DNA from: a virus
Taxonomy: Duplodnaviria > Caudoviricetes
Virus record (IMG/VR): IMGVR_UViG_3300027566_000003
Direction: 5' to 3' (one strand)
Length of the DNA stretch: 64,000 bases
This document shows positions 21,862 to 29,954 of this stretch, one piece after another (the first letter of the stretch is position 1; every line of letters begins with the position of its first letter). The notes beneath the pieces were generated by a model. The model saw only the letters and a list, made by a program, of their open reading frames with translations. It ran no database searches and was not told where the DNA came from. The position numbers and the translations under genes are program-made.

Positions 21862-21891
21862 TCTAACCCCAAATATTACTTTGGGGTTAGA
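21862..21891. repeat. perfect 12-bp inverted repeat with 6-bp spacer overlapping the stop codon of the recombinase-fold gene
   Basis: TCTAACCCCAAA-TATTAC-TTTGGGGTTAGA. Confidence 0.85.
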
Positions 21892-22859
21892 CTACTTTTG
21901 TAACTGTCATACATTTCCTTTAAAGAGTTGCCATTTCTTTCATCCAATTCTAAATTCCTGTATAGTTGTTTAAAGTGATCCGGCTTCAATTCCCCTAATT
22001 CTTTCTCCATTGATAAGCATTTATCTAATAAACCACTTTTAAATATAAGAGTTGGTGTTAAGAACTTTACATTTAAATAACTTCTAAAATTTCTAAATCT
22101 TGAACTAATATTTCCTGGAGTCATTCTATCATCATCGCTAAAGAATACGTCCATAGACCTAATAATAAAGGGGGTATCCTTTAGTGGTAAAATAGAAAAT
22201 GTGTCTGTTGCATCACCATTTGATTTATGATAATATTCTTCCTTAGATGCTGCTATTAGGATATCCATAGTTCTTTGATCCACTTGAACTTTTCTTGGTG
22301 AAGGATTTTTAATTAAGTCATCGGGGTCTTTAATAACATTCACTATATTAAATTCTGGAATAAGATCAGTCTTTTTGAGATTTCTTATTTCTTCATAGGA
22401 AAATCCCTCTTTAGTTCTGCCTCTTATTCCTTCGTATAGTAATGCTATTAATGCTTTGTCAACGTAGTTGTGGAGTCTGTTGCAGTAGTCATACATTTGA
22501 TCTCTTGAAATAAATGAATTTTTTTGAGCAACTTTATGGATGTATTTTTTTAAGTCTTCCTTGTTGACTAGTTTCAAAACATTCATTGAAGAATAGTGTT
22601 TATCCAAACAGCACCAGTCTAAATATTGCATAATAATTGCATAAGCTACACCCATTGATCTAAGAGATTTCTTTTTCATTCCAATTAATAAGTCTTTAAT
22701 TTCTTCGTAACTAAAACTACACAAATCTTTATCTAGTTCATACTCAAATCTTCCTACGCTTCTTAAAATAGAAGTGTTTGTTGATCTGGTTGATTCATTT
22801 GGATATTTCTCATTTAAGAAGCAATTTTTACGATCTTCATTAAATAATTTATGATCCAT
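21876..22859 (-). CDS. tyrosine-recombinase-fold protein, probably a repressor similar to SPbeta YopR/MrpR (SroF)
   Basis: SAM-like N-terminus, LLYEGIRG box I Arg, TPTLIFKSG where HxxR is expected; 327 aa from the RBS-supported ATG; follows a YopQ-like gene. Confidence 0.65.
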   Translation of the reverse strand: MDHKLFNEDRKNCFLNEKYPNESTRSTNTSILRSVGRFEYELDKDLCSFSYEEIKDLLIGMKKKSLRSMGVAYAIIMQYLDWCCLDKHYSSMNVLKLVNKEDLKKYIHKVAQKNSFISRDQMYDYCNRLHNYVDKALIALLYEGIRGRTKEGFSYEEIRNLKKTDLIPEFNIVNVIKDPDDLIKNPSPRKVQVDQRTMDILIAASKEEYYHKSNGDATDTFSILPLKDTPFIIRSMDVFFSDDDRMTPGNISSRFRNFRSYLNVKFLTPTLIFKSGLLDKCLSMEKELGELKPDHFKQLYRNLELDERNGNSLKEMYDSYKSSLTPK

Positions 22860-22860
22860 T

Positions 22861-24210
22861 TTATTGAACCTCCCATTGAGCAACAATAGATTTAAAATAG
22901 TCAGATATTTTATCCATTGTTTTTTTGTTGACATTGTTTTCAATACCAATTTTCTTCCAAATATCGTTTGTTTTGCTAAAGTCTAAAGTTTTTAATATTT
23001 TAGTCAATTGATTTTTCCAATCATCACCATATTTTTGTTTAACTAATTCACCTAAAACAACATATCCAATAAACATATTGTTTGATGAAACATATGAATT
23101 CTCTCTCGCTTCAGTTAATTTACTGTTAAAAGATTCATAATTTACACCAATACAAATATTAAAAAGTTTTATTAAAAACTCTTCTACATTTTCTGACTCT
23201 GTAATAGGTAAATTTTTTAAATCATATACATAATCAATCGTTTTTGACAAAGTGTCAAACGTAACTAGTTTATTTTCAACTTTTAGCTCTTGTTCATTTA
23301 ATCCAATGCGGTTAAACATTTCATTTTTCTTTTGCTTTTCATTAATTGATCTTGCAGTTAACATATTAATATTGCTAGAACTTTTATACTGGATGGATTC
23401 CGGTGGGATGGGTGCTGCCAAACTTTCTTGTTCAATTATTTCATTCGCTCTTTCTTCTGTAACATGATGAATATAAATACTAGTTACCCTCTGAATGTCC
23501 TTACTTTTTTCAATGCATTTTAGCATTCCCCCTGTCCGATTTGCTCCGTCAATTATGTCCACTGACGTAGATATACCATCAGGTTCAATTAATAAGGTTC
23601 TTGCTTTACTATCATATTTAAATTTCTGAATGCCTTTTATCTTGCGTATATTCCATGTTATGGCATTGGGGCAAAACGTATTATTTAACATAGAGTTGGC
23701 GATTTCAGCAACTTTATCTGGGTCAATATCAATGGATTCAATTATTTTGTTTCCACTTTTCCTTTTCTGGAGTGGTCTTTGGGTGTTTGGGTTATATGTT
23801 AATAATCCATTTCCCATATACAAACCAATATTTTGATAAGTTTCTTTTGTACACAACCATTGAGACTCGCTGATTTGGTCAACATTGTGTAACATAATAT
23901 ATTTTACTTTTTCTTCTTCGGTTTTTTGATATGAATCTGCATATGATAATTCAATATCAGTAAACCACTCATTTGGCTTGATTTTTAATTCATGTGTAAA
24001 TTCATAAAGATGTTTTACAAATAAACATAATTCATTTTCTGTGAGATATACTAATGGAGTTACTTTGGTAAATATACCAGTAGTTCTACCTCGACTAATT
24101 CCTTTTTCAATCAACTTAGAAATAACCTTTTCTTGAATCTTAGTATCAACTGAATATTCTTCGACGATTAAATCTAAAACATCTTCAAGTTTTTGACGGT
24201 CTTGCTTCAT
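22861..24210 (-). CDS. DndB/ParB-like (DGQHR-type) protein similar to SPbeta YopQ (SroE)
   Basis: YNPNTQR, PNAITWN and IIDGANRTG motifs; 449 aa; stop adjacent to the start of the next gene. Confidence 0.6.
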   Translation of the reverse strand: MKQDRQKLEDVLDLIVEEYSVDTKIQEKVISKLIEKGISRGRTTGIFTKVTPLVYLTENELCLFVKHLYEFTHELKIKPNEWFTDIELSYADSYQKTEEEKVKYIMLHNVDQISESQWLCTKETYQNIGLYMGNGLLTYNPNTQRPLQKRKSGNKIIESIDIDPDKVAEIANSMLNNTFCPNAITWNIRKIKGIQKFKYDSKARTLLIEPDGISTSVDIIDGANRTGGMLKCIEKSKDIQRVTSIYIHHVTEERANEIIEQESLAAPIPPESIQYKSSSNINMLTARSINEKQKKNEMFNRIGLNEQELKVENKLVTFDTLSKTIDYVYDLKNLPITESENVEEFLIKLFNICIGVNYESFNSKLTEARENSYVSSNNMFIGYVVLGELVKQKYGDDWKNQLTKILKTLDFSKTNDIWKKIGIENNVNKKTMDKISDYFKSIVAQWEVQ

Positions 24211-24239
24211 GTTTATTCCTCCTTGGATATTAATTTAAT

Positions 24240-24290
24240 TGATACATGTAATTTGTATCAATATGTATCAATATGTATCAATATGTATCA
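24240..24290. repeat. operator-like array: four TGTATCA at exact 10-bp period plus one inverted copy
   Basis: TGTATCA at 24254, 24264, 24274, 24284; TGATACA at 24240. Confidence 0.9.
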
Positions 24291-24297
24291 TAATTAT

Positions 24298-24326
24298 ATT
24301 ATATAATAGTATAAACAAAAAAGCAA
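24298..24326 (-). promoter_or_regulatory. sigmaA-type promoter for the yopQ/yopR-like pair
   Basis: TTGCTT-17 nt-TATAAT immediately upstream of the repeat array. Confidence 0.6.
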
Positions 24327-24427
24327 GATATAATTCACTTAAAGATATATGTTATTTGATTATGTTTGGTCTTGTTTTGTTGTGTTGTTATTGGTTGGAT
24401 GGATTTTGGTTTAAGGGTATCGTTGTC

Positions 24428-25135
24428 TTAAGGTTTTTGTTTTGAGTCTAGTAAGGGATAGATATAATTATAACCTATATTAGAAATACTTAGCAACTCT
24501 AAAAGTAAACCGAAACAACTTGATATGACAATTATTTTTATATTAAAGAGCAAGAAGATGGTCATTAATACGGCCCATATGGATAAATAATATAATGACC
24601 ATCGTTTAAATTTATGACGTTCTAATTGTTCTGCAATTGGTTTATTTGGCGTGTCTCTTGGAATATAGCGATAAACTATATATAATGTCATAACAACACA
24701 AAAAATAAATAAATACCAAATTCCTAAAAATGGCCAATATTGGAGAGTGTATTTTACTATTAGCGATGTTGTAATGAATTGAATTAAAGATATTACTGTA
24801 CATTTATTATATGTTTTAAAATGATATCCACCTGCCATTGGTCTTAAAGACATAAAAGTTAAGACTACTACAATGGCAGGTGAAAAGACTCCCAAGATTA
24901 ATGACAACAATACTAATAATAAACCTTTAAATACCGCACCAACAGGAAACATGAATGCTAGACTATATACGCTTATAAGTTCTTCAGTGGTTTTTATTTT
25001 TTTAATATTAAACTTATGAGAGAGTTGTGGAAATACCCCTGCGATCCATCCCCAAGCATATTCAATTTGATCTAATGGTACTTTCTTTACCATTTTATGA
25101 GCTAAATTATTTGATATAATTTGAATTAGATTCAT
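24428..25135 (-). CDS. agrB: accessory gene regulator B (AIP-processing membrane peptidase)
   Basis: LRPMAGGYHFKTYNKC catalytic His/Cys motif, YIPRDTPNKPI, multiple TM segments. Confidence 0.92.
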   Translation of the reverse strand: MNLIQIISNNLAHKMVKKVPLDQIEYAWGWIAGVFPQLSHKFNIKKIKTTEELISVYSLAFMFPVGAVFKGLLLVLLSLILGVFSPAIVVVLTFMSLRPMAGGYHFKTYNKCTVISLIQFITTSLIVKYTLQYWPFLGIWYLFIFCVVMTLYIVYRYIPRDTPNKPIAEQLERHKFKRWSLYYLSIWAVLMTIFLLFNIKIIVISSCFGLLLELLSISNIGYNYIYPLLDSKQKP

Positions 25136-25151
25136 TTAAACTCCTTTCAAT

Positions 25152-25943
25152 TTAGGCAAATGCTACTTGCCTCCCTGTATTATAGTTATTTTGATATTGA
25201 AATGTTTTTTGTGTTCTCTCTTTGTTAAAAGTTTCTAGAACTTCAATAGCAAACTTTTCAGGAACATCTAAAGGAATATATCCGTCTGCCTTACCAAGTC
25301 CAACGGCAACTTTCATCATTAATTCTTTCGAACATTCTGCTACTTTTTCTACTACTCCTGATCCTGAAATTAATCTTCTTTTACTGATTGTGTCTTCTAA
25401 TTCACAACAAATGATAGAATCACATCTTAAACCATGCTCCTTTCCTATAAAAACATGAGTCGGTAATGGCGGTTTACTGCCTACACGACTAGTTATTGCT
25501 AAAACCTTTGTGTTACTACTGAATAAATTACCTTTTGGATTTTGCACCACGAGCACAGGTCGATGTCCTATCACCTCTGAATCAATCCCACTGTCAGAAA
25601 AATTACAAAAATATATTCCTCCACGTTCTATTTTTATATTTCTAATTTTTTCTAAATCATTATTTGTATAATTAGAATATCCACAAGCCAAAGTCAAATC
25701 CTTAAACGAAACTCGCCCTTGAGAATTATCAGAAATTACCTTTAGAAATGTTATATCTGGGTATGTAGACATTTTAGTCTTAATTACACCCTCCATATAA
25801 TCCCCGCTAACCTTACAATCTGCTGCAAAATTATCAATTGATCTATTACCTTTTGCAAGTATAACGTAATTTGCAAGTTTCTTAAAATCTTTTTTAGCAT
25901 TTTCCTCAGTATTAGATTTCCTAGTAATTAATTTGTTAAACAT
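25152..25943 (-). CDS. XRE-like HTH domain fused to a PemK/MazF endoribonuclease
   Basis: N-terminal AKGNRSIDNFAADCKVSGDYM helix pattern; C-terminal RGGIYF...HRPVLVVQN...LAITS...LPTHV. Confidence 0.85.
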   Translation of the reverse strand: MFNKLITRKSNTEENAKKDFKKLANYVILAKGNRSIDNFAADCKVSGDYMEGVIKTKMSTYPDITFLKVISDNSQGRVSFKDLTLACGYSNYTNNDLEKIRNIKIERGGIYFCNFSDSGIDSEVIGHRPVLVVQNPKGNLFSSNTKVLAITSRVGSKPPLPTHVFIGKEHGLRCDSIICCELEDTISKRRLISGSGVVEKVAECSKELMMKVAVGLGKADGYIPLDVPEKFAIEVLETFNKERTQKTFQYQNNYNTGRQVAFA

Positions 25944-26004
25944 ATCAATACACATCCTTTTTATTTTTAGTAAGATATTTCAATATTCGGTATTTAATAA
26001 TATA

Positions 26005-26034
26005 ATTATATCTTACAATGGATATGTATGTCAA
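26005..26034 (-). promoter_or_regulatory. sigmaA-type promoter for HTH-mazF and agrB
   Basis: TTGACA-18 nt-TATAAT. Confidence 0.65.
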
Positions 26035-26072
26035 TATATATTTTATTTTTTGTCATTACATTATTTTATGAT

Positions 26073-26100
26073 TATAGGGAAGACCGTAGCCTTCCCTATA
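26073..26100. terminator. 10-bp stem hairpin just downstream of agrD
   Basis: TATAGGGAAG-ACCGTAGC-CTTCCCTATA; lacks a clear U-tract, so it may be a stabilising stem. Confidence 0.55.
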
Positions 26101-26112
26101 TGTAATATGAAC

Positions 26113-26232
26113 TTATTCGAAACATTTAAGGGTTTCTGGTTGATAACTCCACATTGCGGAAGCTAAACATAAGGAACATACTGTAGCAATTGTGATAAGA
26201 CATCCTGCAATAATAGTATATTTGTTTTTCAT
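26113..26232 (-). CDS. agrD: AgrD-type cyclic autoinducer prepeptide MKNKYTIIAGCLITIATVCSLCLASAMWSYQPETLKCFE (39 aa)
   Basis: GGAGGTG RBS, TAATG overlap with the upstream gene, hydrophobic leader, xxxWx-YQPE motif and charged tail; near agrB. Confidence 0.88.
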   Translation of the reverse strand: MKNKYTIIAGCLITIATVCSLCLASAMWSYQPETLKCFE

Positions 26233-27062
26233 TAGAATTCACCTCCTTTTTCATTAATTTTTACATCATCCATTACTATATCCTGCGTAGCAAGATTTTC
26301 GTATGTCTGGTGTATTCTTTTTTCAACTTTTAGGATATAATTAACTATTAATAATATAAATGTTATAGTAATCGTCGGGATAATAAACATCATAACTACT
26401 ATAATTAATTGTTCAAAAAACGATAAATTTATTAAAATTAAATCTATTCCTATTAGTTTAATTAAGTAAATCATTGTAATCATTATACCTATCAATAAAC
26501 TAAACATTGATCTTTTTAAGAAACTATTTTTTAGTATTATATCAAATAACTTAATTTTTACATCTTCACTTTTTTTTACTATTAAGTATGTCAATATAGA
26601 ATATTCTATTACTCTTGCTGGTAATGAACATAAAAAATTCAAAATAAAGTTGGAGTTTATGTATAAGATATTTGTTTTTGTGAGAGATAATATTAACGGG
26701 TAGTAGCATTCTAATATTGAAATAATGAAAATTCCTAATATTGTATAAAACAATGCTTTAAAGTATTTAATCTTCTCTTGAAGTAAATTATTATTTTTTA
26801 TAACAACTAATGTTAATAAATATAATACTAGTATACCAGTTATTTGGGCAATAGATTTTGAAATATTTGTTAATCTTGCAAAACTTATTATAAAAGACAT
26901 TCCAATTGCTGGTAAAGCGACCCATTTTATATTATCTTTCCACATTCTGATATCTAATAAATCATCTCTACTTATACCTATTAATACTATTGCTACAACG
27001 AACAATTCTTCTGGTAAACTTACTAAAAACATGTTTAATAAGGCATTAATTGTACTTTGCAT
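26232..27062 (-). CDS. polytopic membrane protein, AgrC-sensor-like but without a histidine kinase domain
   Basis: Several hydrophobic segments, short cytoplasmic tail, no HisKA/GHKL motifs; translationally coupled to agrD. Confidence 0.55.
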   Translation of the reverse strand: MQSTINALLNMFLVSLPEELFVVAIVLIGISRDDLLDIRMWKDNIKWVALPAIGMSFIISFARLTNISKSIAQITGILVLYLLTLVVIKNNNLLQEKIKYFKALFYTILGIFIISILECYYPLILSLTKTNILYINSNFILNFLCSLPARVIEYSILTYLIVKKSEDVKIKLFDIILKNSFLKRSMFSLLIGIMITMIYLIKLIGIDLILINLSFFEQLIIVVMMFIIPTITITFILLIVNYILKVEKRIHQTYENLATQDIVMDDVKINEKGGEF

Positions 27063-27080
27063 ATGTATCTACTCCCTATC

Positions 27081-27144
27081 TCTTATTATTTATCTTATTA
27101 TTTATCTTAGGATAATTATACCATATGCAAAGTATATAAGTCAA
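27081..27144 (-). promoter_or_regulatory. promoter for the receptor-agrD unit with downstream direct repeats
   Basis: TTGACT-18 nt-TGgTATAAT; TCTTATTATTTA twice plus TCTTAGGATAA at 27081-27115. Confidence 0.65.
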
Positions 27145-27153
27145 TAAATAATT

Positions 27154-27717
27154 TTATATTTTGTTTATTATATGTATTTGGTTGGACGCTTTTATGGAAT
27201 TGTAAGTAATTATAAATACAAACGATCTGAATATTAAATCCCCTGGCGACATACAACACCATCCGAAATCCCACACATCACAAAGCGGTATCATTTTTGT
27301 AAATTCATCTCCCATTATATGATAGTCTCCATACGGTAATGCTTTAACAAACATATCATGTTTTGCATATCCAGTTGCCCATGAGTTAGAAAAAAATACT
27401 GGCATTTTCCCTGAATTAGCTCTTATTGCAATTGTATTAAGTATACTACCTATCCAAACAAGAGGAATAAAACAAAAATATAACTTCATTTTATTATAAG
27501 ATATCGCCAATAATAAGAAACAACTTAAATAAACAGTTTTAAATAAATATGTATATTTAACTAAAGAATAATCACCTTGCCAAATTGTCGATTCAAGATA
27601 AATGTATAGAAGCACCATAAACATAACAGGGTAAATACTCCATTTTTTAAAAATAGGAAGTATTTTATAGTTATTCCATTTGGCAACTAAAAAAGATAAG
27701 AAAACAGTTTCAATCAT
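27154..27717 (-). CDS. DUF5317-like membrane protein
   Basis: GSILNTIAIRANSGKMPV and LCD...SPGDLI motifs. Confidence 0.7.
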   Translation of the reverse strand: MIETVFLSFLVAKWNNYKILPIFKKWSIYPVMFMVLLYIYLESTIWQGDYSLVKYTYLFKTVYLSCFLLLAISYNKMKLYFCFIPLVWIGSILNTIAIRANSGKMPVFFSNSWATGYAKHDMFVKALPYGDYHIMGDEFTKMIPLCDVWDFGWCCMSPGDLIFRSFVFIITYNSIKASNQIHIINKI

Positions 27718-27764
27718 TCTATATTATTTTCTCCTTTATTATTTATTATTTTATTTATGTATTA

Positions 27765-29381
27765 TTACGGAGGTTCATCATCTTTTTTAATCATATTCTC
27801 ATAGTCTACCAAATACATCCATCTATAACCTTTTGCAAACTCACGAACTTTATTAGTATCTGATCTTATCCTCTTGGTCAAACAACTACTAATTGCAGAG
27901 TTATTCGCAAGACCTAAATCTTTTGTTGCATCTCTCACAGAATTATATTGTTTAACAAATTTATAATCCTTAGATAAACAAATAATTTTTATAGTTCCTG
28001 TTTGATGATAATCATCTGGTTTAATTAAGATATTGTTCCAAATTGAATAACTTATAGCACCTTTAGTTGCTCCTACATATTCAGCAACTTCATCAAAATT
28101 ATAACCATTATCTAATAATCTTTGTGCTTCTTCTACGTCCCAATCTCTTCTTGTATTTTTACTATCATCAATATATTCTGGCATTTCTTTAATATATGGG
28201 AAAAACATCTGTATTGCTTCCAAAGGAGAATAATCTCTGTGGTCTAAATCTATGTAATTATATTTATTATCTATTGCAAATTGCTTTTTAAGTTTATCTC
28301 GCGCCATATGTATTTCATCATCATGATATTCGCTTTGACATTCTATTAATAGATTTAATCTTGGAACATAAATATCATATTTGCTTACACCATTTTTATC
28401 TGTTCTAAATCCTATATCATATTCCCATTTTGTATCATGATCTTCATGCTTAAATACTTGTTTAAGCGTTGTTGCCATTCTAGACTCTACTTTTTCTCTT
28501 ACACATTCAGGACATCCAAAATTACAATTTTTTGCACTATATATTATTTGTGGATAATCTTCATGTTTACACTCTTTACATTTCCACCAAACTTTTGTAC
28601 TGCTTCCTGGGGTATATTCATATGGAGATTTATTATTTTTATCAGACCAAATTTCTATTGTTTGAGGATATAAATATCCTAAACTATCATATTTATGTAC
28701 TTTTACACGCGAATTACAATACCCACACCTCCCTCCACTAATAAATTCTCCGCAAAGAATATCATAACTCCCATGGTAATCTTTTTCTTGGCATTTAATC
28801 CAAACTTTTCTATTAGTATATTTAGTGTATTTAAAAGGGTCAATTGTATTTTTATCATAGTCCCAATATAATTCTAACGCAGTAACACCAAACGAATCTA
28901 TTAAAAATTGTCCAAAACTATCTTTAGGATGTACAGAATTTTGTCCTTTACAATAACTACATCTATTACCTCTTATAAAATCCGAACCACTAATTTGATA
29001 ACTTCCATGATAGTTTTTCTTTCTACAAAAGATATAAAATTTTTTGTAATTATTATAATTAATTTTCCAAGGATCAATGCCTAATTCATTATTCTTCTCA
29101 TAATCCCAATATTCTTTAAGAAAATCTTCTCCTAAATTATCTATCCCCCATTCTGCGAATGTATAACACAATCCACAACTACTTTTAGATTTTCTATTTA
29201 TAATACCAGAAGGACTGACTAACCAATCCTTGCCGCACGTACAAGTATGTAGTATTTTAGTATTAGCACCAATATATTCAACTCCTTCTTTTAACTTTAT
29301 ATTTGTATCATATTTTAAATTATATTCTTCTAATTCTTGTTTATATTGTTCTGTTGTCTTCTTATTAGTTTTCTTAGTCAA
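27765..29381 (-). CDS. free-standing homing-endonuclease-like protein (repeated zinc ribbons, PD-(D/E)xK-like nuclease, C-terminal NUMOD1-like domain)
   Basis: Repeated KVWxKC...H...C..C units, YDIYVPRLNLLIECQSEYH, KQYNSVRDATKDLG. Confidence 0.7.
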   Translation of the reverse strand: MTKKTNKKTTEQYKQELEEYNLKYDTNIKLKEGVEYIGANTKILHTCTCGKDWLVSPSGIINRKSKSSCGLCYTFAEWGIDNLGEDFLKEYWDYEKNNELGIDPWKINYNNYKKFYIFCRKKNYHGSYQISGSDFIRGNRCSYCKGQNSVHPKDSFGQFLIDSFGVTALELYWDYDKNTIDPFKYTKYTNRKVWIKCQEKDYHGSYDILCGEFISGGRCGYCNSRVKVHKYDSLGYLYPQTIEIWSDKNNKSPYEYTPGSSTKVWWKCKECKHEDYPQIIYSAKNCNFGCPECVREKVESRMATTLKQVFKHEDHDTKWEYDIGFRTDKNGVSKYDIYVPRLNLLIECQSEYHDDEIHMARDKLKKQFAIDNKYNYIDLDHRDYSPLEAIQMFFPYIKEMPEYIDDSKNTRRDWDVEEAQRLLDNGYNFDEVAEYVGATKGAISYSIWNNILIKPDDYHQTGTIKIICLSKDYKFVKQYNSVRDATKDLGLANNSAISSCLTKRIRSDTNKVREFAKGYRWMYLVDYENMIKKDDEPP

Positions 29382-29412
29382 TATTTAATTTATTTCCTCC
29401 TCTTTATTTTTA

Positions 29413-29820
29413 TTATGCATAAACTACACCATTTTTATTTCTTAATTCTACCAATCCAAACTGTATACCGATTCCTCTATCAATTCTTAACATAGTTTCC
29501 TCATCGCATTGTCCTATTTTTTCTTCAATCAAATCTCTCGTGACTGGCATGGACTGTTCGCAGAGAGCAATAGAATCCATTTTTAGGCCAGAATTTCTAC
29601 TGATGGGTATATGAGTAGGTAATTTTGATTTTGTGGTCACAGAAGTTAAAGGACATATATGTAGTACATTGGAATATTGATTACAGGCGTTGTTGCTAAT
29701 TATCACTACGGGACGCTTAAATTGTTGGATAGATCCATTACTGTTGGGAAGATTTGCAATATAGATATCGCCCCTCTTAATCTCTTTTTGAGCTTGAACA
29801 TTATTTATTGTTTGTTTCAT
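29413..29820 (-). CDS. PemK/MazF-family endoribonuclease
   Basis: KRGDIYIANL...KRPVVIISN...ICPLTS...KLPTHI; no MazE-like gene adjacent. Confidence 0.9.
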   Translation of the reverse strand: MKQTINNVQAQKEIKRGDIYIANLPNSNGSIQQFKRPVVIISNNACNQYSNVLHICPLTSVTTKSKLPTHIPISRNSGLKMDSIALCEQSMPVTRDLIEEKIGQCDEETMLRIDRGIGIQFGLVELRNKNGVVYA

Positions 29821-29954
29821 AATACTAATCACTCCTTTTTATTTTCTTATGATTAGTATTATGACCAATAATTTGTCCAATATACCTATTATTTTATAAA
29901 AATTTTATTTATATTGTATAACTATTACTTGCAATCAAAATTACATTCTAATTA

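Follow-up and report, generated by a model that had tools for sequence, protein, structure and literature searches.

A 64-kb stretch of DNA from a tailed phage (IMG/VR record IMGVR_UViG_3300027566_000003; henceforth the window) carries, directly ahead of homologues of the yopQ and yopR genes of SPbeta-group phages, a group of genes that is best explained, with a probability which we put at about one half, as a self-contained peptide-signalling cassette derived from bacterial agr systems and residing, in large SPbeta/c-st-like Clostridium phages, in the slot of the arbitrium genes before the repressor module SroE/SroF. The cassette encodes a stand-alone PemK/MazF RNase, a DUF5317 membrane protein, a membrane protein with seven predicted transmembrane helices (TM), an AgrD precursor peptide, a fusion of an XRE-type helix-turn-helix (HTH) domain to a second PemK domain (HTH::PemK) and the peptidase-cyclase AgrB. 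Sequence comparisons with related phages lend good support to the signalling cassette as such and to the logic by which its peptide and membrane protein are paired, and we infer that the peptide sets the choice between lysis and lysogeny, with the MazF domains acting as its effectors. Alongside arbitrium, the cassette is a strong candidate for a further type of communication between phages; arbitrium is to our knowledge the only such system characterised in detail so far and uses an RRNPP-type cytoplasmic receptor.

Conservation of the cassette across phage lineages

After removal of duplicates, 15 distinct phage lineages from metagenomes were compared, with identities of 35-91% between their TM proteins. 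The gene order PemK-DUF5317-TM-AgrD-HTH::PemK-AgrB-(TM2)-YopQ-YopR, where TM2 denotes a second TM paralogue, was found in 15/15 lineages, and the same order recurred in all contigs examined as well as in 13 further IMG/VR loci. The stand-alone PemK is present in 14/15 lineages, the contig of the remaining one (L011) ending at that place, and DUF5317 likewise in 14/15, being absent from L084. The synteny of the agr genes with the YopQ/YopR pair, on whose retention in relatives a preliminary description of the window had staked its own interpretation, is thus seen in every lineage (15/15). The most conserved cassette protein is HTH::PemK, with a mean identity of 62%, and AgrB retains the motif GG-x-H-x6-C containing the catalytic His and Cys in all 15 lineages.

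Of the sequencing runs searched, a groundwater metagenome was the only one to contain the entire window and may be its source. The TM protein was traced to a contig of 237 kb, and the relatives of the window phage are IMG/VR viral contigs of 121-230 kb. All 26 close relatives of TM are metagenomic, and the HTH::PemK family comprises 52 clusters. No match to the window region (megablast) or to AgrB (tblastn) was obtained in 50,697 phage records, and a scan with clade alignments matched only one species-representative genome, the metagenome-assembled genome G001 of a Clostridium sp., which holds a related prophage.

With respect to the downstream genes, the arrangement that defines the SroE/SroF module, an integrase-fold repressor of the MrpR/YopR type preceded by YopQ, is present. 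The YopQ-like protein is homologous to CST029 of phage c-st and to phi3T_96 (tblastn), both of which are annotated as yopQ homologues. In phi3T, aimR-aimP-aimX are followed by four genes and then by yopQ-yopR (yopP-yopQ-yopR), and the proposal that the cassette takes the place of arbitrium is borne out in so far as its position corresponds to that of aimR-aimP-aimX upstream of yopP-yopQ-yopR.

Co-variation of the peptide ring with the membrane protein

The association of the peptide with its potential partners was assessed by Mantel tests across the 15 lineages, in which identity at the four variable ring positions of AgrD was compared with the identity of each cassette protein. The strongest correlation was that with TM (r=0.51, p=2e-4), followed by DUF5317 (r=0.38, p=0.004), HTH::PemK (r=0.34, p=0.001) and AgrB (r=0.30, p=0.002); for the stand-alone PemK, YopQ and YopR, r was about 0 and not significant. 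When HTH::PemK, AgrB or DUF5317 was controlled for, TM retained a partial correlation of r=0.42-0.45 (p<=4e-4), whereas the ring signal of AgrB and HTH::PemK was lost once TM was controlled for, and DUF5317, regarded here as an accessory member of the variable block, kept a weak partial correlation (r=0.31, p=0.014). As agrD has TM on one side and HTH::PemK on the other at equally short distances, linkage alone cannot account for these partial correlations. The co-variation of the ring with its candidate receptor, which had been named beforehand as a check, is therefore present. TM is proposed to be the cognate partner of the AgrD peptide, most likely its receptor.

Comparisons between closely related phages show the same pairing at the level of DNA. 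Lineages L014 and L083 are about 100% identical over PemK, most of HTH::PemK, AgrB, YopQ and YopR, and are interrupted by an island of 63-74% identity that takes in agrD and, from about codon 40 onwards, TM, and in which the ring changes from SWLWS to SWLFT. In turn, L084 matches L014 at about 100% identity in YopQ/YopR, with near-identity setting in at the 3' end of agrB, whereas the whole block from PemK to AgrB is only 50-70% identical. Such mosaics indicate that the cassette is exchanged between phages both as a unit and as a smaller sub-unit of TM and agrD, a pattern that is also known from the hypervariable region of staphylococcal agr and from the exchange of AimR/AimP alleles.

The AgrD peptide

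The 15 small open reading frames (ORFs) in the agrD slot share a Lys-rich start, a hydrophobic leader, the residues Ala-Ser, four variable and mostly aromatic residues, and a follower of the form [YHN]-Q-P-x-x-P/L-x-C. In AgrD of C. perfringens and Listeria the five residues before [YH]QP form the ring, and in the peptide of the window the predicted ring is accordingly S-A-M-W-S ahead of a YQP follower. At the first position of the ring, 14 lineages have Ser and L012 has Cys, so that the nucleophile column holds Ser or Cys in 15/15 aligned peptides, as it does in every aligned cellular homologue. The Cys of the window's peptide, which lies 3 residues upstream of the conserved Ser, is not the ring nucleophile and is itself not conserved; the nucleophile column is that of the Ser. 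The four residues after the nucleophile are hypervariable, and the 15 lineages have 15 different rings.

The NCBIfam AgrD model TIGR04223 was matched by 13/15 peptides from the same syntenic slot or related loci (best E=8e-15), and the slot peptides combine the leader, nucleophile, five-residue ring and Pro-containing follower that characterise AgrD. The window's own 39-aa peptide stayed below the threshold of the AgrD models, yet it aligns column for column, and its low score is probably due to a follower reading P-E-T-L instead of P-x-x-P; the same presumably holds for a 95% identical relative, which would likewise fall below the threshold. Autoinducing peptides cyclised via Ser are described as rare, H. 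thermocellum being an example among the work cited in PMC8251862. Tail-less clostridial thiolactones have been found to rearrange to homodetic cyclopeptides (PMC8251862), so that the phage peptide may be a lactone or such a cyclopeptide in its final form. The host agr locus of G001, agrD-agrC-agrB (L053:309-2412), also has Ser at the ring position, with S-L-I-S-T before HQP. Ser rings may be the norm among hosts of this group, and phage peptides could conceivably take part in cross-talk.

The hairpin 3' of agrD recurs in every lineage, and its two arms show paired changes in, e.g., L083, L005 and L011. Its stem U-A-U-A-G-G-G-A-R-G, often closed by a CUUCGG loop, is conserved across lineages whose proteins are only 40-60% identical, and there is no clear U-tract. 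Termination or stabilisation of the 3' end is its likely role, and it may do more than terminate.

A membrane protein family without a kinase domain

The TM protein has no match in Pfam, PHROG or NCBIfam, nor do ten distant members of its family match Pfam. A profile search of 1.84 billion representatives assigned 224 clusters to this family, the members of which have 240-330 residues save for fragments, and among which none is of kinase length. Since in addition an hhalign comparison of the family with a host AgrC gave a probability of only 0.3%, the earlier idea of a truncated AgrC had to be abandoned. The N-terminus, as read by eye from the positive-inside rule, is presumably outside. The cytoplasmic helix at the C-terminus carries the motif E-K-x-x-Q-Q-T-Y-E-N-L, which is present in both paralogues, and an intramembrane P-E-E in helix 1 is near-invariant across the whole family, in contrast to Glu118 and Arg150, which are invariant only within the phage clade. 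Among AlphaFold database clusters, the TM model matched one uncharacterised relative (TM-score 0.68), and its N-terminal half weakly matched MreD, ECF-S components and the seven-helix region of histidine kinases. A match in the ESM Atlas to a cluster of AgrC-type kinases (TM-score 0.44) was too weak to be used.

Members of the family occur in 21/399 sampled Clostridia genomes (about 5%), often in several copies. In a survey of the neighbourhood of 20 such genes within a radius of 6 kb, an AgrD-like ORF followed TM in 15/20 loci and AgrB was nearby in 7/20. A gene for an XRE-HTH protein was likewise found in 7/20 loci, in 6 of them directly beside TM or agrD, and these cellular XRE neighbours share a C-terminal helical extension. 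A LytTR gene was seen in 1/20 loci and an AgrC-like kinase in 0/20, the latter by phmmer with a single seed and hence as a floor, not a proof; DUF5317 was not found beside the cellular TM-AgrD pairs. By these results TM is not a decayed AgrC and instead marks a kinase-less version of agr in its own right, which was captured by phages.

A second full-length TM paralogue, TM2, lies between agrB and yopQ in five lineages (L005, L009, L011, L081 and L089), and a remnant of 98 residues is left in L079; the window has none. The TM2 proteins come without a peptide gene of their own and form a separate clade with 46-84% identity, in which the juxtamembrane motif Q-x-Y-E-N is kept. Eavesdropping by TM2 on foreign peptides was considered and set aside, given that there is no direct evidence for it and that TM2 constitutes an old clade and not recent copies of another lineage's TM1.

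MazF domains and the avoidance of UACAU in the repressor gene

The catalytic positions of MazF, Arg and Thr, are preserved in both PemK domains. In particular, the alignment of HTH::PemK to structures of EndoA/YdcE from B. subtilis includes the RP and ITS motifs, and in the HTH::PemK family the Arg never varies and the Thr hardly does. For the N-terminal 105 residues of the fusion, only a weak PHROG match and no match of the profile to PDB sequences were obtained; a structure model built from 34 homologues (predicted local distance difference test, pLDDT, 80.6; core >90) has the fold of an XRE/SinR-type HTH, and nearly all of the top 50 Foldseek matches were XRE/SinR/Cro-type HTH proteins, SinR with a root-mean-square deviation of 1.5 Å over 67 residues.

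The small ORFs upstream of the stand-alone PemK had no match in Pfam, and among those of five lineages no antitoxin of the MazE/AbrB/SpoVT type was thus found. What is seen in place of MazE is the fused HTH and, at the stand-alone PemK, a start-codon hairpin, which has an equivalent in 10/13 lineages with differing arm sequences that show compensatory changes. This suggests that the stand-alone PemK is silenced in cis, at the level of translation, by the hairpin in place of an antitoxin. The stand-alone PemK is also the closer of the two to CST027 of c-st, where a PemK gene stands beside yopQ/yopR without agr genes, so that the MazF gene at this place is older than the agr insertion.

The pentamer UACAU is the recognition site of MazF from B. 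subtilis, S. aureus and C. difficile, and it was chosen a priori on the assumption that the phage PemKs have Bacillus-type specificity. In the yopR genes of 12 lineages, UACAU was observed 3 times as compared to 15.5 expected from synonymous shuffles, a five-fold depletion that none of 5000 shuffles reached and that makes it the third most depleted of all 1024 pentamers, behind two A-rich words. The count in yopQ was 16 (24.4 expected); the other cassette genes were not depleted, and the ORFs of the window as a whole had 86 (70 expected). The counts in single yopR genes of phi3T and c-st lack statistical power. In turn, UACAU was frequent in the leaders of yopQ (9 observed, 1.8 expected), TM (9, 2.0) and HTH::PemK (7, 2.0), where the expectations are mean densities across loci instead of shuffles and, the lineages being related, are rough figures. 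TM leaders contain a conserved spacer A-A-U-A-C-A-U-A-U-G which places UACAU on the start codon. In 10/14 lineages the pentamer abuts the TM AUG (about 27058-27070 of the window, minus strand), and a Bacillus-type MazF site thus sits between ribosome-binding site and start codon. MazF activity favours lysogeny in phi3T (PMC10769878), and a repressor mRNA that escapes a UACAU-specific RNase would fit this finding.

Promoters and operators

The promoters suggest three transcription units, TM-agrD, HTH::PemK-agrB and yopQ-yopR, the second with a common promoter and a gap of 16 bp between its two genes. At this promoter an inverted repeat (25975-26015, minus strand) flanks the transcription start, one half, TAAGATAT, overlapping the -10 box and the other, ATATCTTA, lying about 30 nt downstream. 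It is conserved in about 9/15 lineages, and in L089 both halves are changed and remain partly complementary (GATGTAT / ATACATC). Ahead of TM, a TAAGATA-like box follows the -10 in most lineages. An exact tandem repeat of 12 bp (2.4 copies, 100% matches) is located at 27081-27109, between the -10 and the ribosome-binding site of TM; L002 has one copy fewer.

The operator array at 24250-24290, ahead of yopQ, consists of four TGATACA heptamers with a period of 10 bp (4.1 copies) plus one inverted copy and is unique in the window. All lineages have a promoter together with a repeat or palindrome at this place, the palindromes of the others being different. Lineages with a common operator element have YopQ/YopR proteins that are 73-97% identical and HTH::PemK proteins of only 51-58% identity; the type of element follows the similarity of YopQ/YopR and not that of HTH::PemK, and the array is therefore more likely an autoregulatory site of YopR/YopQ. 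For the HTH of the fusion, the TAAGATAT/ATATCTTA repeat and the TAAGATA-like box would, judged by their conservation, be the better candidate sites.

Proposed mechanism and alternative explanations

Under the reading of an agr-derived signalling cassette, AgrB would make a five-residue lactone, which might rearrange to a homodetic cyclopeptide, and TM would be the cognate, kinase-less receptor of that peptide. No phosphorelay would be involved in passing the signal on, and its target would be the XRE-HTH::MazF fusion, the stand-alone MazF silenced by its hairpin, or both, and MazF would spare the UACAU-poor repressor mRNA, so that lysogeny would be favoured at high peptide, as it is by host MazF in phi3T.

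A number of points weigh against this reading. The link to lysis and lysogeny comes from position only, and the UACAU specificity of the phage PemKs is assumed by analogy with Bacillus-type MazF. Besides the missing similarity to AgrC in the hhalign comparison, the TM model matched no solved receptor, both Foldseek (PDB and Swiss-Prot models) and VIA-align (48,161 chains) returning the background of helical bundles. The variable residues of TM show no bias to the predicted outer face (p=0.2-0.7), and the intramembrane P-E-E together with the Glu and Arg would be equally in keeping with an enzyme or transporter. Co-variation with the ring is expected of a receptor and likewise of a protein for specific maturation or immunity. 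A hidden Markov model of the fusion's N-terminal domain, run against the ORFs of the 20 cellular loci, found no similarity to the cellular XRE neighbours, and a likeness seen by eye was dropped for this reason. The predicted complex of TM and HTH::PemK scored 0.00, which is evidence neither way.

A more specific version of the reading, which we hold only tentatively, regards the cassette as a distinct system, with a Ser-cyclised pentapeptide as pherotype, a kinase-less seven-helix receptor, an XRE-HTH::MazF output and lysogeny via a repressor mRNA purged of MazF sites, in which case the TM family and XRE would represent an unrecognised agr route in about 5% of the sampled Clostridia genomes.

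It appears rather unlikely, by comparison, that TM is a specificity-matched factor for maturation, leader removal, export or self-protection, with a role like that of staphylococcal MroQ, and that DUF5317, TM2 or a host kinase is the sensor. TM stands ahead of agrD, in a TAATG overlap, as a processing enzyme would; the near-invariance of P-E-E in the family and the invariance of Glu118 and Arg150 in the phage clade, the lack of a kinase, of similarity to AgrC and of an outer-face bias of variation, and the partial correlation that DUF5317 retains with the ring are all in favour of such a role. However, TM has neither a conserved His nor a Pfam match to CPBP/Abi proteases, the presence of TM2 without its own peptide in several phages would be odd for a dedicated maturation enzyme, and the 13/20 cellular TM-AgrD loci without a nearby AgrB resemble receptor-peptide pairs.

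The peptide might instead be a product of lysogenic conversion, i.e. the cassette a moron whose peptide acts as agonist or antagonist of a host AgrC/AgrA, reprogramming the quorum sensing of the host, and not in the phage's own decision, as has been proposed for phiCDHM1 (PMC3901668), which serves as precedent. The one genome with such a prophage, G001, does have a canonical agrD-agrC-agrB locus, with a Ser-x4-HQP AgrD and two LytTR regulators. We nevertheless regard this as unlikely, as the cassette is fixed beside the repressor operon in 15/15 lineages and brings its own partner protein and regulator, and as the diversification between near-identical phages is expected for private channels and not for mimicry of one host signal.

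Finally, a toxin-antitoxin, defence or addiction module, in which two MazFs serve to maintain a plasmid-like prophage or to keep other phages out, their adjacency to agr genes and repressors having no signalling meaning, is improbable in spite of the PemK beside yopQ/yopR in c-st, which lacks agr genes, of the resemblance of the fused XRE-HTH to HigA-type antitoxin folds among other XRE proteins and of the silencing of the stand-alone PemK in cis by its hairpin, because it leaves the conserved AgrB, AgrD and TM and their pherotype-like diversification unexplained, HTH::PemK shares its promoter with agrB at a distance of 16 bp, and the avoidance of UACAU is specific to the repressor gene.

Gene layout and neighbouring genes

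All genes named in the preliminary description at 21876-29832 were recovered, on the minus strand (Table 1). The statement that no AgrA/LytTR regulator or kinase is present stands for the cassette genes and the related phage loci, whose Pfam matches include neither an AgrC-type kinase nor a LytTR protein; the scan did not cover the whole 64-kb window, for which the statement had been made.

Table 1. Features of the cassette region, a large neighbouring ORF and TM2 paralogues of related lineages (positions refer to the window unless a lineage is given)
Feature	Position	Strand	Match or remark
Start-codon hairpin of stand-alone PemK	29817..29864	-	perfect 15 bp, Shine-Dalgarno in loop
Stand-alone PemK/MazF RNase	29413..29832	-	PF02452 PemK_toxin E=1e-24; phrog_1936 MazF-like; probable start ATG at 29820
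Homing-endonuclease-like gene	27765..29381	-	DUF4379 zinc fingers E=1e-19; HNH-endonuclease family phrog_559
DUF5317 membrane protein	27154..27717	-	PF17248 E=2e-15
Promoter-like element and leader 12-bp tandem repeat (TM-agrD)	27081..27144	-	TTGACT-18-TATAAT at 27144-27115
TM protein, 276 aa	26232..27062	-	seven predicted helices; AlphaFold2 pLDDT 77.7
AgrD precursor, 39 aa	26113..26232	-	overlaps stop codon of TM as TAATG
GC-rich hairpin 3' of agrD	26073..26100	-	-19.3 kcal/mol, z=-6.4
Promoter and inverted repeat (HTH::PemK-agrB)	25975..26034	-	TTGACA-18-TATAAT at 26034-26005; 12/12 match
XRE-HTH::PemK fusion	25152..25955	-	PemK domain residues 110-220, E=4e-18; conserved start probably ATG at 25943
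AgrB peptidase-cyclase	24428..25135	-	PF04647 E=3e-33
Promoter and TGATACA operator array (yopQ-yopR leader)	24250..24326	-	TTGCTT-17-TATAAT
YopQ/SroE-like protein, DndB-like	22861..24210	-	phrog_5732 E=4e-62
YopR/SroF/MrpR-like integrase-fold repressor	21876..22949	-	PF22822/PF22823: MrpR_N_CB E=1e-17, MrpR_C_cat E=2e-8; phrog_5830 E=2e-55; probable start ATG at 22859
Polynucleotide kinase-phosphatase/RNA ligase, 1373 aa	32607..36728	-	common to SPbeta-group and other phages
TM2 paralogue	L005:12647-13456		
TM2 paralogue	L009:12770-13621		
TM2 paralogue	L011:3389-4180		

The window has a G + C content of 28%, and nearly all of its ORFs of at least 100 aa lie on the minus strand. They include early or middle phage genes such as those for an NAD-dependent DNA ligase, several DNA methyltransferases and a Thg1-like enzyme. 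The kinase-phosphatase/RNA-ligase ORF aligns to its SPbeta-group homologues in two pieces with 53% coverage, which suggests large insertions, possibly inteins or homing-endonuclease domains.

The homing-endonuclease-like gene is absent at that place in L002 and L008 and, by this comparison, is an insertion specific to the window's lineage. Unrelated inserts are found at differing points of the cassette (window 27765-29381, L002:12749-13525, L005:7535-9271), the kinds encountered being a DUF4379/HNH endonuclease, a GIY-YIG endonuclease and an uncharacterised gene of 578 aa without a Pfam match. Those of other lineages lie at the position of the window's homing-endonuclease-like gene or after AgrB, and the region gives the impression of an insertion hot spot for mobile elements.

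In relatives (L002:3666-6762, L006:3010-5351), the genes located a few kb upstream encode a candidate PP2C-like phosphatase, weakly matched in Pfam, and a Ser/Thr kinase, preceded in L002 by a 229-aa protein that resembles a von Willebrand factor A domain by eye. NAD-salvage genes also occur upstream (L005:863-3956, L008:5556-8154, L009:3138-5679), coding for NAMPT and a protein like phosphoribosyl pyrophosphate synthetase and, in L005, for a nucleoside deoxyribosyltransferase; a PTH2 peptidyl-tRNA hydrolase is found in these regions of L005, L008 and L009 as well.

Significance and comparison with known systems

If the signalling reading is true, phages have turned to a second bacterial signalling chemistry, unrelated to the first, for one and the same decision, and a function would be assigned to an orphan family of membrane proteins that is widespread and, in Clostridia, is found with AgrD where AgrC/AgrA are missing. 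This would touch on an old question, namely how 'orphan' agrBD loci are sensed, and there is a real chance that the route of transduction is new. The MazF genes of the phage and its MazF-site-poor repressor would furthermore extend the connection between arbitrium and MazF from a host toxin to a phage-owned one.

With the arbitrium system of SPbeta-group phages, the cassette has in common that a phage-encoded system of a secreted peptide is located directly upstream of yopQ/yopR (sroE/sroF), that peptide and partner diversify between related phages, and that there is a link to MazF, as seen in phi3T (PMC10769878). However, arbitrium employs a linear hexapeptide from AimP, which is re-imported and bound by the cytoplasmic RRNPP-type receptor AimR with its tetratricopeptide repeats (TPR), whereas the phage cassette has a peptide processed by AgrB, a candidate receptor that is an integral membrane protein, and MazF genes owned by the phage. 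No homologue of AimR, AimP or AimX and no TPR protein was found among the nine cassette proteins, as judged by Pfam and PHROG matches.

In turn, the catalytic His and Cys of AgrB, the organisation of AgrD into leader, five-residue ring and Pro-containing follower, and a hypervariable specificity region spanning agrD and its partner are shared with canonical agr. In contrast to the latter, the cassette has no AgrC kinase and no LytTR regulator, in place of which an unrelated seven-helix protein and an XRE-HTH are found, the co-variation of AgrB and ring is gone once TM is controlled for, and the nucleophile is Ser. Of the features by which membership in agr is recognised, AgrB and AgrD are thus present, and neither an AgrC of the HPK10 type with HATPase_c_5 nor the LytTR domain of AgrA is. 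As far as can be told from its genes, the cassette is not of the arbitrium/RRNPP type, and it is derived from agr in its biosynthesis, although AgrC and AgrA, both of which are defining for agr, are lacking.

The only other phage agr locus retrieved by a literature search is that of phiCDHM1, a C. difficile myovirus (agr3), which resembles the cassette in the presence of agrB and agrD without agrA in a temperate phage of Clostridia but has an AgrC-type kinase, and the agr genes of which were interpreted as horizontally acquired from the host (PMC3901668).

With respect to the toxin side, the MazF/PemK fold with the catalytic Arg/Thr expected of a type II MazEF system is present, and an adjacent antitoxin of the MazE type is not. 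The repressor genes agree with SroE/SroF of SPbeta in the matches to the N- and C-terminal domains of MrpR, in a YopQ homologue immediately upstream and in repeated operator-like elements; they differ in an identity of about 25% to the Bacillus proteins, in the lack of a yopP-like gene between cassette and yopQ, and in operators that are specific to the phage lineage. A similar layout is finally found in CST027-CST030 of the C. botulinum phage c-st, with a PemK-family gene, one unknown gene and homologues of yopQ and yopR, and, two genes beyond yopR, with an NAD-dependent DNA ligase, in which it agrees with the wider layout of the window; c-st differs in that AgrB, AgrD, TM and DUF5317 are lacking and that its PemK has a C-terminal extension and not an N-terminal HTH.

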